Source of the DNA: a virus
Taxonomy: Duplodnaviria; Heunggongvirae; Uroviricota; Caudoviricetes
Length of the DNA stretch: 4,421 bases
Virus record (IMG/VR): IMGVR_UViG_2537562020_000009
Strand: one strand, 5' to 3'
Positions 1-4,421 of the stretch are shown here, one piece after another. The notes beneath the pieces were generated by a model. That model had not been told where the DNA came from. It saw only the letters and a program-made list of their open reading frames with translations, and did not search any database. A program made the position numbers and the translations under genes. Positions within the stretch are counted from its first letter, which is position 1; every line of letters starts with the position of its first letter.

Positions 1-1
1 A

Positions 2-307
2 CGGAGGACAGTTGTGGCGCACGTTTTCGGTGAACGCACTCTGGCCACACTGGCGCGTCTTCTGAGCCTGCTGTCGGCCTTTGAGGTCGTGGTATGGATG
101 ACGGATGGCTGGCCGCTGTATGAATCACGCCTGAAGGGAAAGCTGCACGTTATCAGCAAGCGTTACACTCAGCGCATTGAGCGACATAATCTGAATCTGA
201 GACAACATCTGGCAAGGCTGGGACGGAAGTCACTGTCGTTCTCAAAATCGGTGGAGCTGCATGACAAGGTCATCGGGCATTATCTGAACATAAAACACTA
301 TCAGTAA
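2..307 (+). CDS. insB: IS1 transposase InsB, C-terminal part (5' end outside window)
   Basis: The translation (...[70 protein letters not shown]) is the recognisable InsB C-terminus. The frame is open from the window edge and the TAA stop at 305-307 lies inside the terminal repeat, as in IS1. Confidence 0.9.
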
Positions 308-322
308 GTTGGAGTCACTACC
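300..322. repeat. IS1 terminal inverted repeat (insB-proximal end) of the left copy
   Basis: The reverse complement ggtagtgactccaacttactgat matches the IS1 end motif and pairs with 4101-4123 (ggtaatgactccaacttattgat) in inverted orientation. Confidence 0.85.
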
Positions 323-343
323 CCGCGATTTGAACGAGAAGGT

Positions 344-1393
344 TTGCTGATTGAAGGACAGAGAACAAACTATTTCAGAAATTCAAATACACCAGAAGCA
401 TGGAATAACACGGGTAGTGTGTCTGTTGAGTCGTTCGACAGTGATAAGGGGTTTAACTATGGAAGGATAACTGTTATTAATGAAAATCCGACAGCACAAG
501 GATATCAGGCAATTGCTGTAAACACGAATGATGCTTACACCTGCCCGGCAGGTTCTTATACGACGATATCGTGTCTGACGAAAAGTGATAATTCCCGGTG
601 TCGTGCAAGGTTCGGAAAAATGTCTGATAATGGTGCGTTTGTTTTTCATTCAGATGCAGTTCTGGATCCTGTTACGGGAAATGTTGTTCATGGAAATAAT
701 GTGACGGTGACGGCAGAAAGAGTCGGTGAATGGTGGTTGTTTACCGCCACTCTTTTTGCAGATGCGGAAATGATAATCAGCTCAAGATTTGAAATCCTGG
801 CGATGCCTGGAATCAGTATTATCCCCAATGGCTCTACGTTAGATATTGCGATGCCTCAGGCGGAGATTGGGTCGTACAGGACGTCATTTATCATTACTGA
901 AGGGGCTCCTGGCACTCGCTCCAGCGACATGGTGACAATACCTGTAAGAAACAATATTCACCGATTACCATTCAGTGCTCTTGTTGAAGTTAATAAAAAC
1001 TGGGATATCCCTCCCAGCAAATCACCATTAATCTTTAATGTTAAAGATTATCAGGAAAATGGTCTGTTCACGCATGGATTCCGTGGTAATAATTTCTCTG
1101 ATGCCGGTTCTCCTTTTATTTCTATGGGAGGGTGTAATAAATATGTGGCAACAACCCAGAGGAAAATCATTTCAGGCTTCCGTTGTGGCGCTGATGGAGA
1201 TGTTCAGGCCGTATGTAATGGTGAATTATCTGTTGCGGCAAAAACAACATGGACTTCAATTGTTCCACGGGCAGTATTGCGAATTGGAGGGCAGGGCACT
1301 AATGGGGAGTATCATCTTTTTGGTCATATCCGTAATCTGCGTATCTGGCATAAAGAATTAACTGATGCGCAAATGGGGGAGAGTATTAAATGA
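344..1393 (+). CDS. Putative phage tail-fibre / receptor-binding protein, C-terminal portion; 5' end apparently truncated by the IS1 insertion (frame open back to 323, first usable start is TTG at 344)
   Basis: The 349-aa ORF is in frame with no stop all the way back to the IS1 boundary at 323, has no ATG near its 5' end, and its N-terminal sequence reads like protein interior. Its C-terminus (...LRIGGQGTNGEYHLFGHIRNLRIWHKELTDAQMGE) resembles a lectin-like (LamG / concanavalin-A-type) distal domain as found in phage receptor-binding proteins. It is followed by translationally coupled tail-fibre-type genes. The family assignment is from pattern recognition only. Confidence 0.5.
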   Translation: MLIEGQRTNYFRNSNTPEAWNNTGSVSVESFDSDKGFNYGRITVINENPTAQGYQAIAVNTNDAYTCPAGSYTTISCLTKSDNSRCRARFGKMSDNGAFVFHSDAVLDPVTGNVVHGNNVTVTAERVGEWWLFTATLFADAEMIISSRFEILAMPGISIIPNGSTLDIAMPQAEIGSYRTSFIITEGAPGTRSSDMVTIPVRNNIHRLPFSALVEVNKNWDIPPSKSPLIFNVKDYQENGLFTHGFRGNNFSDAGSPFISMGGCNKYVATTQRKIISGFRCGADGDVQAVCNGELSVAAKTTWTSIVPRAVLRIGGQGTNGEYHLFGHIRNLRIWHKELTDAQMGESIK

Positions 1394-1671
1394 AAGATTT
1401 AACACTCAAATTTGCAGACAGGGCCGACTTTTCGGCCTTTATGGAGAGTATTGGCTATTATGATGACGAGTCGATGCAGGATGATATTCTTATTGACGTG
1501 ATAGGTAACGTGTACAAAGAAACCGGAGAACTGACTGAAGATGGCGAACCGGTATGTGTTAAGGAAGACGGATATTTTGTAAACGTGCGCATCATTAATG
1601 ATGTAAAAAAATCGTCAATATTCGATAAATACGCGGTTGTTGTTGAGCATCAACTTCGTGGCTGGATGTGA
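1390..1671 (+). CDS. Small acidic hypothetical protein (93 aa), phage-associated
   Basis: Its ATG overlaps the upstream stop (ATGA at 1390-1393) and a G-rich Shine-Dalgarno (gggggag, 1376-1383) precedes it. Composition is strongly acidic (about 20 D/E against 10 K/R by count). I recognise no family. Confidence 0.55.
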   Translation: MKDLTLKFADRADFSAFMESIGYYDDESMQDDILIDVIGNVYKETGELTEDGEPVCVKEDGYFVNVRIINDVKKSSIFDKYAVVVEHQLRGWM

Positions 1672-1680
1672 GGGAGACAA

Positions 1681-2385
1681 ATGGCTACATCGACAGTAAT
1701 TCCAGGAGATATCACCACGCTAAAGGGAGATGTCAGTAAAACTAAGGAAGATATTTCCTCAATTAACGGAAAAGTATCAACGCTTCAGACTGATATGACC
1801 AGTGCAAAGCAGGATATCAGCACCAGATACACAAAAACTGAAGTTGATAATAAGCTGAAAAACAAACTGGAAGTGAACGATCTGGAAAGCGGTCGTTATG
1901 GTGGAGATTTTTACCCGTTGACTGGCCGTGAAGCGTTTTATATGTGGGGATTGGGCACGACTACAGCGGCGGCAAACCTTTATCTTAATCCTGACCCTGC
2001 AATTTCGTCTGTACTGCGGTCAACATCGTCTATTCGCTATAAACATTCAGTAGAGACGATAGATTCAGAGCACGCCGATCTCATTTTCAGGATGCGCCCT
2101 GTGTGGTACAGGTCGCAATGCGAAAATGACAGGCGTGACTGGGGATTCTACGGATTGATTGCCGAGGAAGTAGGAGAAATTGCCCCTCAGTTTGTACACT
2201 GGCGACCAGCTAACGAAGATGATGCTCCTGAAGCTATTTCCAGCAATGGCCTTGTTGCCGAAGGTGTAATGTACGAACGTCTGGTTGTTCCACTGATTCA
2301 CCATATCCAGAAGCTGACTGAAAGAGTTGATGAACTTGAGTCAGAATTAAAGTTGTTATCCGTTTCCCGAAGCGATATCGGATAA
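1681..2385 (+). CDS. Short tail-fibre-domain protein with C-terminal intramolecular chaperone / autoproteolytic domain (peptidase S74-like)
   Basis: The C-terminal ~120 aa show the characteristic pattern of endosialidase / T5 L-shaped-fibre chaperone domains: S-I-R-Y-K-H-S-V-E-T-I-D (Ser/Lys region), then DLIFRMRPVWYR, then GLIAEEVGEIAPQFV, then GVMYERLVVPLIHHIQKLTERVDELESEL. The N-terminal ~60 aa are a low-complexity repetitive S/T/K/D segment (DITTLKGDVSKTKEDISSINGKVSTLQTDMTSAKQDIS). An AGGGAG Shine-Dalgarno lies at 1671-1676. Confidence 0.7.
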   Translation: MATSTVIPGDITTLKGDVSKTKEDISSINGKVSTLQTDMTSAKQDISTRYTKTEVDNKLKNKLEVNDLESGRYGGDFYPLTGREAFYMWGLGTTTAAANLYLNPDPAISSVLRSTSSIRYKHSVETIDSEHADLIFRMRPVWYRSQCENDRRDWGFYGLIAEEVGEIAPQFVHWRPANEDDAPEAISSNGLVAEGVMYERLVVPLIHHIQKLTERVDELESELKLLSVSRSDIG

Positions 2386-2395
2386 AGGAGGAGTA

Positions 2396-2689
2396 ATGGA
2401 TATAACACCTTTCCTTCATGCGCTTTGTGCTGTGGCTGCGCAGCTACTGATTGGTCTTTTTACCGGGAACTGGGCTTACGGGGCGATAGCCGGTTGTACG
2501 TTCTTCATTGCGCGTGAACACACCCAGGCAGAATATCGCTGGATCGAAATGTTCGGGCATGGCAAGCGAATGAATATGCCGTGGTGGGGCGGTTTTGATA
2601 CACGTGCATGGGATGTGGCAAGCCTGATGGATTTTGCTGTGCCGGTGGTGGCGTGTCTGCTGGTCTGGCTGTTGGTTAATCGTGGGTGA
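2396..2689 (+). CDS. Small hydrophobic (2-3 predicted transmembrane segments) membrane protein, 97 aa; function unknown
   Basis: A strong Shine-Dalgarno (AAGGAGG, 2385-2391) sits 4 nt upstream of the ATG. Two long hydrophobic stretches (LHALCAVAAQLLIGLFTGNWAYGAIAGCTFFIA and VASLMDFAVPVVACLLVWLLV) flank a charged, aromatic-rich loop. It is preferred over the antisense ORFs at 2444-2790, which lack such signals. Confidence 0.6.
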   Translation: MDITPFLHALCAVAAQLLIGLFTGNWAYGAIAGCTFFIAREHTQAEYRWIEMFGHGKRMNMPWWGGFDTRAWDVASLMDFAVPVVACLLVWLLVNRG

Positions 2690-2820
2690 AAAAAGGTGAG
2701 CTGTATATGCAACGGAGGAAGAAAACTCGTTGCTGGAAGCCTGGAAAAAGTATCGGGTGCTGCTAAACCGTGTGGACACTTCCGTAGCACCAGATATCGA
2801 GTGGCTTATTCAACCATAAT

Positions 2821-3364
2821 AAACAGTATGTATATCATAGGTTATTAATTGTGAGTTTTTTCGGTGTGTTATTTGTTTGTTTGATGTTATGCTTTTGCGC
2901 CCCAAAAGGTTGTTTAGATGTATTTTATCAATTGATTTTCAATGTCGTTTAATAAAGAAAAATTAAGCAAGCTGGATGTTGGTTTTTTGTTAATTGAATG
3001 GTTCTAATAATGTTTTTTTACTGTTGTTGAATGTGACTTGATAAGAAATGCAAGTAAAAATGATACTCTTTTTATTTTAAATTCAAACGGTTGACATATA
3101 TATAGCAAGAGGTTTCAGGTGCGTTGTAGTGAGTTTATGTTAATAAAAAGTATAGTAAGCGTTGAAAAATGTAACTTTGAAATACGTTAGAATAAAAAAC
3201 AATATACATATAATAATTTAATCTTAAATGAAATTTATTAAAATTTGCAAACTATAATTTTGTGTATAAAAATATAAATGCACATCATCCTGATTATGAT
3301 TGTGTATTTAATTGGTTGTTATTTGACTGCTATCAACTTGTTTTAATTTTATGATAGGTGCAAG
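2821..3364 (+). promoter_or_regulatory. Extremely AT-rich intergenic regulatory tract upstream of the AraC-family regulator (candidate promoter and nucleoid-protein binding region)
   Basis: Hand count gives 136 G+C in 540 bases (about 25%), with many A/T tracts. Contains a perfect TATAAT at 3209-3214 (weak -35 candidates only), a TTGACA at 3091-3096 without a good -10, an ArcA-box-like 15-mer at 3139-3153 (11/15 to GTTAATTAAATGTTA), and an AGGTG Shine-Dalgarno at 3356-3360 for the downstream gene. Exact promoter positions are not determinable from sequence alone. Confidence 0.45.
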
Positions 3365-4105
3365 ATGGATTATGTTTGCTCCGTAGTTTTCATCTGTCAA
3401 TCATTTGATTTAATTATAAACAGGAGAGTTATCTCGTTCAAAAAAAATTCATTGTTTATTGTAAGCGACAAAATTAGAAGGGAGTTACCAGTATGCCCCT
3501 CTAAACTAAGAATTGTTGATATAGATAAGAAAACATGTTTATCCTTTTTTATCGACGTGAATAATGAGCTGCCTGGCAAATTTACTCTTGATAAGAATGG
3601 CTATATTGCTGAAGAGGAACCTCCATTATCGCTTGTTTTTTCTCTGTTTGAAGGGATTAAAATAGCAGACTCACACTCCCTTTGGTTAAAAGAAAGACTA
3701 TGTATATCCTTACTTGCCATGTTCAAAAAACGCGAAAGTGTAAATTCATTTATACTAACAAATATAAATACATTTACCTGTAAAATTACTGGAATAATCA
3801 GTTTTAATATTGAGCGGCAATGGCATTTAAAAGATATTGCGGAATTGATTTATACGAGTGAAAGTTTAATAAAAAAAAGATTAAGGGATGAAGGAACGTC
3901 ATTTACTGAAATATTGAGAGATACTAGGATGAGGTATGCAAAAAAACTCATAACTTCAAACTCTTATTCTATCAATGTCGTAGCCCAGAAATGTGGCTAT
4001 AACAGTACTTCATATTTCATATGTGCATTTAAAGATTATTATGGTGTCACGCCATCTCATTATTTTGAGAAAATAATCGGCGTCACAGATGGAATAAACA
4101 GGTAA
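3365..4105 (+). CDS. appY: AraC/XylS-family transcriptional activator, AppY-like; the final codon and stop codon are supplied by the adjacent IS1 end
   Basis: The C-terminal ~100 aa form a typical AraC-type double helix-turn-helix region ([44 protein letters not shown]...[29 protein letters not shown]). The N-terminus [21 protein letters not shown] matches my recollection of E. coli AppY. The gene is low-GC with an AGGTG Shine-Dalgarno, and the ORF ends ...GINR-stop, where the AGG codon spans the junction (4100-4102) and TAA (4103-4105) lies inside the IS1 end. Confidence 0.7.
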
Positions 4106-4123
4106 TGACTCCAACTTATTGAT
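4101..4123. repeat. IS1 terminal inverted repeat (insB-proximal end) of the right copy
   Basis: ggtaatgactccaacttattgat is the canonical IS1 end sequence, inverted relative to 300-322. Confidence 0.85.
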
Positions 4124-4421
4124 AGTGTTTTATGTTCAGATAATGCCCGATGACTTTGTCATGCAGCTCCACCGATTTTGAGAACGACAGCGACTTCCGT
4201 CCCAGCCGTGCCAGGTGCTGCCTCAGATTCAGGTTATGCCGCTCAATTCGCTGCGTATATCGCTTGCTGATTGCGTGCAGCTTTCCCTTCAGGCGGGATT
4301 CATACAGCGGCCAGCCATCCGTCATCCATATCACCACGTCAAAGGGTGACAGCAGGCTCATAAGACGCCCCAGCGTCGCCATAGTGCGTTCACCGAATAC
4401 GTGCGCAACAACCGTCTTCCG
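4116..4421 (-). CDS. insB: IS1 transposase InsB, C-terminal part (5' end outside window)
   Basis: The minus-strand translation (...[68 protein letters not shown]...NIKHYQ) is InsB. The frame is open to the window edge and the stop lies at 4116-4118. Confidence 0.9.

Follow-up and report, generated by a model that had tools for sequence, protein, structure and literature searches.

Composite transposons bounded by IS1 are known in two geometries: Tn9 carries its IS1 copies in direct orientation, and in Tn1681 inverted copies surround a heat-stable enterotoxin gene. Our literature search found no primary source on Tn1681. IS1 is also a routine sight in cryptic prophages, as are contigs that end in insertion sequences. 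The DLP12 prophage of Escherichia coli K-12, whose right part runs from nohD to tfaX'-appY-ompT-envY, has the inducible relatives PhiR68_2 and Kati.

Here, we describe a 4,421-bp stretch of DNA, in the following referred to as the window, which corresponds in full to contig AQCZ01000139.1 of the draft E. coli assembly GCA_000354315.2. In the initial annotation, its inverted IS1 pair and the 3.78 kb in between were read as an IS1 composite transposon, or else as a segment deleted or rearranged at its borders by IS1 activity. We consider it very likely that the window is instead a contig from a degraded DLP12-family right arm, which broke in two IS1 copies stemming from two independent events.

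Structure and gene content of the window

The two inverted arms (positions 2-322 and 4101-4421) are 321 nt each, 90% complementary to one another and separated by 3,778 nt. Each contains the coding sequence for an InsB C-terminus (Pfam DDE_Tnp_IS1, E = 6e-51 on the left and 3e-47 on the right), and since the insB stop codons lie at 305-307 on the plus strand and at 4116-4118 on the minus strand, the insB-proximal IRR ends point inward. The terminal inverted repeats (left ...AAGTTGGAGTCACTACC, right ...AAGTTGGAGTCATTACC) coincide in alignment with the termini of full-length 768-bp IS1 elements, which places the boundaries exactly at 322/323 and 4100/4101. Inverted-repeat analysis, Pfam and full-copy alignment thereby confirm the inverted IS1 ends, their inward-facing insB sides and both borders as initially annotated. 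The two copies represent different variants, which differ by 10% across the arms and by 5.9% across the full elements (45 of 768 positions): the left arm is an exact match to coordinates 447-768 of a full, divergent IS1 copy in FORC_082, and the right arm agrees letter for letter with the IS1 that ETEC 2014EL-1346-6 carries at this site.

In the alignment to full copies, the arms end at IS1 coordinates 447 (left) and 448 (right), and these positions are at the same time the contig ends. The ends of the window are therefore assembly breaks within a repeat, and as the window spans the entire draft contig, no more than 321-322 nt of each IS1 are visible. Likewise, the contigs of other draft genomes carrying the right junction break 27-172 nt into the right-hand IS1. 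The shared stop at 447/448 is not obviously a simple k-mer merge of the two variants, as identical runs of 34-35 nt are also found within the arms. A scan of the whole window against Rfam gave zero matches.

Table 1. Features of the window, with positions, strand and supporting detail (a slash marks a junction)
Feature	Position	Strand	Detail
Left IS1, 3' part (IS1 coordinates 447-768)	1..322	+	InsB C-terminus ORF 14-307; IRR end at 322
CCGCGATTT, 9 bp beside left IS1	323..331		uninterrupted site in L002: ...gttgacgaa/ccgcgatttgaacg
stf, 5'-truncated side tail fibre, codons 426-781	323..1393	+	phrog_1419 positions 426-793 of 793, E = 2e-106
93-aa phage ORF, phrog_1361	1390..1671	+	relatives keep same gene order
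234-aa tail-fibre-domain protein, Peptidase_S74 intramolecular chaperone domain	1681..2385	+	PF13884 E = 5e-6; phrog_3299, phrog_454
97-aa phage ORF	2396..2689	+	phrog_1443
tfa (tail fibre assembly) remnant	2709..2819	+	phrog_105, phrog_188, phrog_136; tfa pseudogene annotation in relatives
AT-rich tract upstream of appY	2820..3364		GC 0.22-0.29 over about 2800-3400
appY, AraC-family activator, 246-aa allele	3365..4105	+	Pfam HTH_18, HTH_AraC; RefSeq AppY WP_001393528.1
GAATAAACA, inner copy of right IS1's 9-bp target-site duplication	4092..4100		repeated past outer IS1 end in relatives
Right IS1, 3' part (IS1 coordinates 448-768)	4101..4421	-	IS1A/IS1B-type; IRR end at 4101

The content initially assigned to the region between the arms, that is, tail-fibre genes, an AT-rich tract and a regulator, holds with three refinements (Table 1): stf is truncated at its 5' end, a tfa gene is present as a remnant, and the stop codon of appY is supplied by IS1. 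What appears as the first gene is the remainder of a 781-codon stf, namely its last 356 codons, with window position 323 corresponding to codon 426 of the intact gene in 20AR0300 and EC24. An insB stop codon lies in frame upstream of this remainder, and the annotated 349-aa ORF starting from TTG at 344, which lies within the truncated stf, is a gene-caller product. In general, the N-terminal region of stf is repetitive and highly variable between strains. At the other end, the regulator can be assigned to AppY by sequence, with an HTH_18 domain at residues 159-235 and 99.4% identity to K-12 DNA over 2709-4100; position 2709 is where the K-12 homology (tfaX'-appY) begins.

As for the arrangement of these genes, the full 3,778-nt interior is 99.89% identical to 20AR0300, and 100% identical to EC24 after removal of an IS3 and an IS1 that EC24 has acquired on its own. 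The intact phage PhiR68_2 displays a right arm of the order stf-tfa-...-tfa'-appY-ompT. The comparison with related genomes suggested by the initial annotation thus yields an interior that is colinear with uninterrupted relatives and intact phages (99.9-100%). The stf cassette is common to 20AR0300, EC24, some phage-like plasmids and other phages, and among the records searched, the interior occurs solely as prophage or phage right-arm sequence; we did not find it between IS1 copies in another context in complete E. coli genomes, plasmid records or phage records. Judged by these alignments, the interior is a native DLP12-family right arm, consisting of stf, small ORFs, a tfa remnant, the AT-rich tract and appY. 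The enclosed genes would then stand in native phage order, having been neither assembled nor delivered by IS1.

The right-hand IS1 in appY

The right junction is found as one continuous match in 28 complete ETEC-type genomes, all of which share the context intD...nohD-stf'-appY-IS1-ompT-envY. In the initial annotation, it was proposed to look for target-site duplications around each IS1, and for the right copy, relatives provide the answer: an individual 9-bp duplication, GAATAAACA, is present on both sides of the IS1 at this site in eight loci (L001, L003, L010 and L012-L016). Full 768-bp IS1 elements occupy this site in relatives, as does an internally deleted copy of 566 bp in L015; every complete copy read shows the duplication and has ompT-envY directly beyond the IS1. 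Empty sites are available as well: the site is contiguous in 20AR0300 (L002), and K-12 has an intact appY-ompT without IS1. In uninterrupted sequence, the native end of appY (...aataaac aaa aca att gac tga) is visible, and the K-12 protein has 249 aa (750-nt CDS). In the window, the translation ends in ...TDGINR*, so that the native C-terminus ...NKTID has become ...NR, with the stop codon taken from the IRR of IS1.

By comparison with these relatives, the right IS1 is to be regarded as a simple insertion that replaced the last four residues of AppY. An IS1A/B-type element would have transposed in the ordinary manner into the last codons of appY, duplicating GAATAAACA and leaving ompT-envY just beyond. 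Most likely, this was the same ancestral event as in the ETEC (O6:H16-type) genome group. All carriers of the right junction that were read also have a deletion that fuses terminase' to stf' at window position 467. As the window does not have this deletion, its source must belong to a sister lineage outside that ETEC clade, and an independent IS1 insertion at the same appY site in the source lineage is possible. Given that relatives share the junction at 100% identity, we infer that the window's own strain probably has a full-length right IS1 with the GAATAAACA duplication and ompT beyond it. The insertion is of a known kind, already annotated by RefSeq in many genomes.

The surrounding region has been hit by IS1 repeatedly. 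In other lineages, we found eight other IS1 insertions, each with its own duplication and at a distinct site, and at least five distinct IS1 sites, from different lineages, are spread from window position 3529 to roughly 115 bp beyond the appY stop. The ETEC appY allele is maintained in its clonal group. It is conceivable, albeit unlikely, that the recurrent insertions reflect selection on appY/ompT expression and not only a preference for AT-rich DNA, and that the inverted pair in the source strain could invert or mobilise the appY segment. A literature search found no work combining appY, DLP12 and IS1.

The left-hand IS1 in stf and competing explanations

The left IS1 adjoins stf codon 426 in a junction that is confined to one assembly lineage. 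None of 5,426 complete E. coli genomes contains it (megablast across the junction), nor was it found in exact-pattern scans of GTDB species representatives, metagenome contigs and IMG/VR. Some megablast hits that seemed to continue for roughly 20 nt beyond the IS1 border turned out to have unrelated flanks at narP, fucA and rsmC and represent chance extensions. By simple insertion, the outer end should read ...GTTGACGAA CCGCGATTT/GGTGATGCTGCC, that is, ...GTTGACGAACCGCGATTT/GGTGATGCTGCC (slash, junction), with stf codons 1-428 joined to the left end of IS1. This predicted junction of stf...CCGCGATTT with the IS1 left end was not found in the scanned genome, metagenome and viral contigs, and the N-terminal stf fragment of 436 aa that an insertion would leave, built on the backbones of EC24 and 20AR0300, had no exact match in the protein collection. 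The latter result carries little weight, as one differing residue would be enough to hide a match.

The divergent IS1 variant may have entered stf at codon 426 by simple insertion, or a deletion or IS-IS recombination may have removed upstream prophage DNA; we think that the left IS1 probably arose by simple insertion. It is nonetheless quite possible, if short of probable, that the left border was produced by an IS1-mediated adjacent deletion or by IS1-IS1 recombination, which would have taken away the 5' portion of stf together with the prophage genes upstream and left no duplication, independently of the right IS1. Deletions have commonly eroded the prophage at this locus, as illustrated by the terminase'-stf' fusion of the ETEC genomes at 467 and by truncations in K-12, EC24 and 20AR0300. 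Furthermore, of four copies of the left-type variant that were surveyed, two have no duplication and adjoin truncated genes (yejO and fucP), and in the literature, adjacent deletion or IS-IS recombination is given as the cause of a missing target duplication (PMC11708052). Neither trace that a simple insertion should leave, the N-terminal fragment or the outer junction, turned up in the collections searched, but these negative searches weigh little, given that the DNA collections do not include the source assembly and that the protein look-up needs a perfect match. Against a deletion, every one of the eight IS1 copies in this prophage region of complete genomes is a simple insertion and has its duplication. 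Of the initial proposal that IS1 deleted or rearranged the borders, the part concerning the right border fails on the duplication and the contiguous empty site, while a simple insertion stays our preferred reading of the left border, where such an event is possible.

The inverted IS1 ends around a 3.78-kb segment do resemble a genuine composite of the Tn1681 type, which arrived or later moved as a unit, and both outer IRL ends could in principle serve as substrates for IS1 transposase. Yet the right IS1 is flanked by a duplication of its own, and genomes with the empty site have the DNA from either side of it joined without a break, an outcome that the insertion of a unit cannot yield; moreover, the interior is in native phage order, the bracketing IS1 copies belong to separate variants, and no more than one assembly lineage shows the left junction. 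Two IS1 copies around a cargo are present, whereas a unit-level duplication, foreign cargo and, in the records searched, a second context are not, and we consider a composite transposon extremely improbable. An individual duplication for each IS1 and a colinear interior had been named at the outset as evidence for separate insertions, and this is what we observe for the interior and, in relatives, for the right-hand IS1. Nor do we expect the IS1 ends to have been wrongly joined to the contig by the assembler. It is true that the window, a short contig of a draft assembly, runs into a repeat at either end and that both arms stop at the same IS1 coordinate, but 28 closed genomes have exactly this right junction, the left junction consists of a clean IS1 terminus (...GAGTCACTACC) adjoining in-frame stf, and the contig is listed under three samples, which makes such an artefact very improbable.

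Relation to known systems

The biological weight of two independent IS1 copies in a degraded prophage arm is small. Of minor local interest are the ETEC-type appY allele, which ends in a codon and a stop supplied by IS1, and the several independent IS1 hits in the appY-ompT interval. The lesson is rather a methodological one, in that a repeat-bounded contig with inverted IS ends can mimic a composite transposon, and the question can be resolved fast by looking for the empty site and the duplication in closed relatives.

In this respect, the window resembles repeat-bounded short-read contigs, which likewise have a multi-copy IS at each end and, in further draft genomes with the right junction, are cut within this IS1; it differs in running 321-322 nt into each copy and stopping at one IS1 coordinate. 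With Tn9 and Tn1681, it has in common two IS1 copies around a cargo of a few kb, inverted as in Tn1681, but it shows no unit-level duplication, its right copy has its own duplication, its cargo is native, its IS1 variants differ and no second location was found among the records searched. It also resembles simple insertions of IS1A/IS1B and of divergent E. coli variants, with which it shares the termini, the InsB coding sequence, the 768-bp size in relatives and the 9-bp duplication of the right copy, despite the short portion of each copy within the window. Finally, positions 2709-4100 are 99.3-99.6% identical to DLP12 of K-12 and its inducible relatives, and stf, small ORFs, tfa' and appY, with ompT next in line, are the native right-arm order, whereas the stf cassette is unlike that of K-12 and IS1 interrupts the window at both ends.

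The segment between the IS1 arms

The initial annotation correctly described an inverted IS1 pair that encloses tail-fibre genes, an AT-rich tract and a regulator gene, appY. Alignment to relatives without these IS1 copies, as it had proposed, finds the enclosed 3,778 nt colinear with strain 20AR0300 (99.89% identity) and, after removal of its own IS3 and IS1, with EC24 (100%). The EC24 IS3 (L009:8554-9810) lies within the gene for the 234-aa tail-fibre-domain protein, at window 1872-1875. The match to DLP12, the cryptic lambdoid prophage of K-12, spans window 2709-4100, the right arm of the complete phage genome PhiR68_2 reads stf-tfa-...-tfa'-appY-ompT, and the appY segment also occurs in phage Kati (H58). 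The supposed mosaic module is therefore native to DLP12-family lambdoid phages, as their right arm with one of several stf cassettes, and was not assembled by IS1. Since PhiR68_2 carries appY and ompT at its right end and Kati the appY segment, the two genes travel as phage cargo; in PhiR68_2 (L020, record 47294-49246), ompT follows appY immediately, at the right end of the genome.

The tfa'-appY part (window 2709-4100) is also found at 99.2-99.4% identity on H50 (NZ_CP110860.1, 113 kb) and H51 (NZ_OY754386.1, 42.7 kb), two records filed as non-mobilizable plasmids; these may represent phage-plasmids, prophages that have excised, or contigs assigned wrongly. At the left border, the stf remnant shares its reading frame with the insB stop codon (305-307), after which there is no ATG; the 349-aa ORF annotated as 'phage head spike fiber domain-containing protein' (TTG start at 344) is probably a gene-caller product that is not expressed.

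Features between the IS1 arms, and IS1 insertion sites in related loci
Feature	Position	Remark
stf, 3' part	323-1393	356 codons
ORF	after stf remnant	93 aa
Tail-fibre-domain protein	after 93-aa ORF	234 aa, with S74 chaperone domain
ORF	after 234-aa protein gene	97 aa
Tail-fibre-assembly remnant	2709-2819	
AT-rich tract	before appY	GC 0.22-0.29
appY	3365-4105	
IS1 sites around appY	window 3529, 4056, 4092	
IS1 site, WP2-S18-ESBL-07	between appY and ompT	
IS1 site, 20AR0300 (L002)	~115 bp past appY stop	L002:9894-10661
Loci entered for appY-region IS1 hits		L002:9894-10661; L022:2732-3499; L009; L023
Further IS1 hit, PKF8	stf, window 1126	
Further IS1 hit, 99-3165	envY	
Further IS1 hit, E1535	between iss and ylcI	

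The IS1 arms and the ends of the contig

The arms (2-322 and 4101-4421) form an inverted repeat of 321 nt with 90% complementarity and a spacing of 3,778 nt, and both encode the C-terminal part of InsB (Pfam DDE_Tnp_IS1, E = 6e-51 left, 3e-47 right). Alignment to full IS1 copies sets the element termini precisely at positions 322 and 4101 and shows both IRR (insB-proximal) ends pointing inward, which bears out the proposed orientation and the borders at 322/323 and 4100/4101. When the truncated tail-fibre product was looked up by exact match, the window proved to be all of AQCZ01000139.1 (4,421 bp) from draft assembly GCA_000354315.2; the two arms are thus ends of the contig. The left arm is identical to a common divergent IS1 variant over coordinates 447-768 and the right arm to an IS1A/B-type copy over coordinates 448-768, and this shared stop points to an assembly break within the repeat. 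Draft contigs of other strains with the identical appY-IS1 junction also stop 27-172 nt into IS1. Window ends 1 and 4421 (IS1 coordinates 447 and 448) share their stop despite the two different variants; a simple k-mer merge of these does not obviously explain it, given that identical runs of 34-35 nt also occur within the arms. Full-length left-type and right-type IS1 differ at 45 of 768 positions, 32 of them in the arm region, and the two copies are not sisters.

Origin of the right and left IS1 copies

The appY-IS1 junction recurs in 28 complete genomes, each time as an unbroken match at 100% identity; most are from human ETEC isolates, including O6:H16 strains. Every right-junction carrier read has the context intD...nohD-stf'-appY-IS1-ompT-envY-ybcH-nfrA. 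In eight carrier loci, the 9 bp GAATAAACA stand on each side of this IS1, which is 768 bp long in all but one, an internally deleted copy of 566 bp (L015, JAWXVY010000001.1). The empty site in 20AR0300 reads ...GATGGAATAAACAAAACAATTGACTGA... without interruption, and in K-12 an intact appY is followed by ompT with no IS1 between them. Its own duplication and the contiguous empty site make the right copy a textbook simple insertion, and exclude the border deletion by IS1 that had been considered for this side. The insertion changes the AppY C-terminus from ...NKTID to ...NR, with the stop codon within the IS1 end, and leaves the HTH domain (residues 159-235) unaffected. In 99-3165 (L014:10737-11504), the IS1 at this site, with the same duplication as in other carriers, is a hybrid of the two variants, 95.6% identical to the right arm and 94.7% to the left; this copy and the shortened one in L015 suggest that IS1 variants exchange sequence and that the element decays where it was inserted.

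On the left, codon 426 of the 781-codon stf begins at window 323, and the phrog_1419 match to the remnant begins at profile position 426. This junction is absent from 5,426 complete E. coli genomes and from the species-representative genomes, metagenome contigs and IMG/VR records searched; the only records of the 349-aa product are the window's own NCBI contig and a single short contig in Logan. The left junction is the only part specific to the source assembly. We lean towards a simple insertion here too. The outer junction that it predicts was not found, a weak negative given that the source assembly's other contigs lie outside the DNA collections searched, nor was the predicted stf N-terminal fragment, also weak because the look-up needs a perfect match and the region is variable and repetitive. 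It is possible that IS1-mediated adjacent deletion or IS-IS recombination made this border instead: an IS copy without duplication next to a truncated gene is the signature of such events (PMC11708052), and two of the four left-type copies surveyed lack duplications and adjoin truncated yejO and fucP. By contrast, each of the eight IS1 copies found within this prophage region in closed genomes is flanked by a duplication of its own, at a separate site, so the base rates cut both ways.

The two duplication-free copies (L004:3353-4120 in FORC_082, yejO'/narP; L005:3353-4120 in FORC_031, fucP'/fucA) adjoin genes annotated as lacking the N-terminus, as would fit IS1-associated deletions. One of the two strains, FORC_031, is itself among those with the window's right junction. 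Carriers of this junction have a common clean terminase'-stf' deletion with its right end at window 467 and no IS at the joint; in L003, one such carrier, a terminase large-subunit fragment is fused directly to stf (L003:5921-6040). The window retains 323-466, missing from the carriers; its strain is therefore a sister of the ETEC group rather than a member, and the left boundaries of the two are separate events.

IS1 around appY and the comparison with composite transposons

Different lineages carry at least five independent IS1 insertions within appY or up to ~115 bp past its end, all flanked by 9-bp duplications of their own. These hits were found with IS1-containing queries, so that the count is biased by ascertainment and does not yet justify a claim of a hotspot; their number is the one mildly interesting pattern. 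Otherwise the IS1 events are of a known kind and the locus is well known, with RefSeq genomes already annotating the right-hand insertion.

The inverted copies, 94% identical, could in principle recombine and invert the enclosed segment; given the hybrid in 99-3165, IS1 variants do appear to exchange sequence. For two independent insertions, the initial annotation had expected a duplication for each IS1 and an interior colinear with an uninterrupted prophage in relatives: the duplication was found for the right copy, and the colinearity for the interior. Its reading as an IS1 composite transposon fails on three defining features, and the likeness is one of architecture only. A composite transposon has a duplication around the whole unit, whereas here there is none, because the right IS1 has its own; it occurs in more than one location, whereas the interior was not found between IS1 copies in any other context in the plasmids, phages and E. 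coli genomes searched; and its cargo is foreign to the locus, whereas here it is native.
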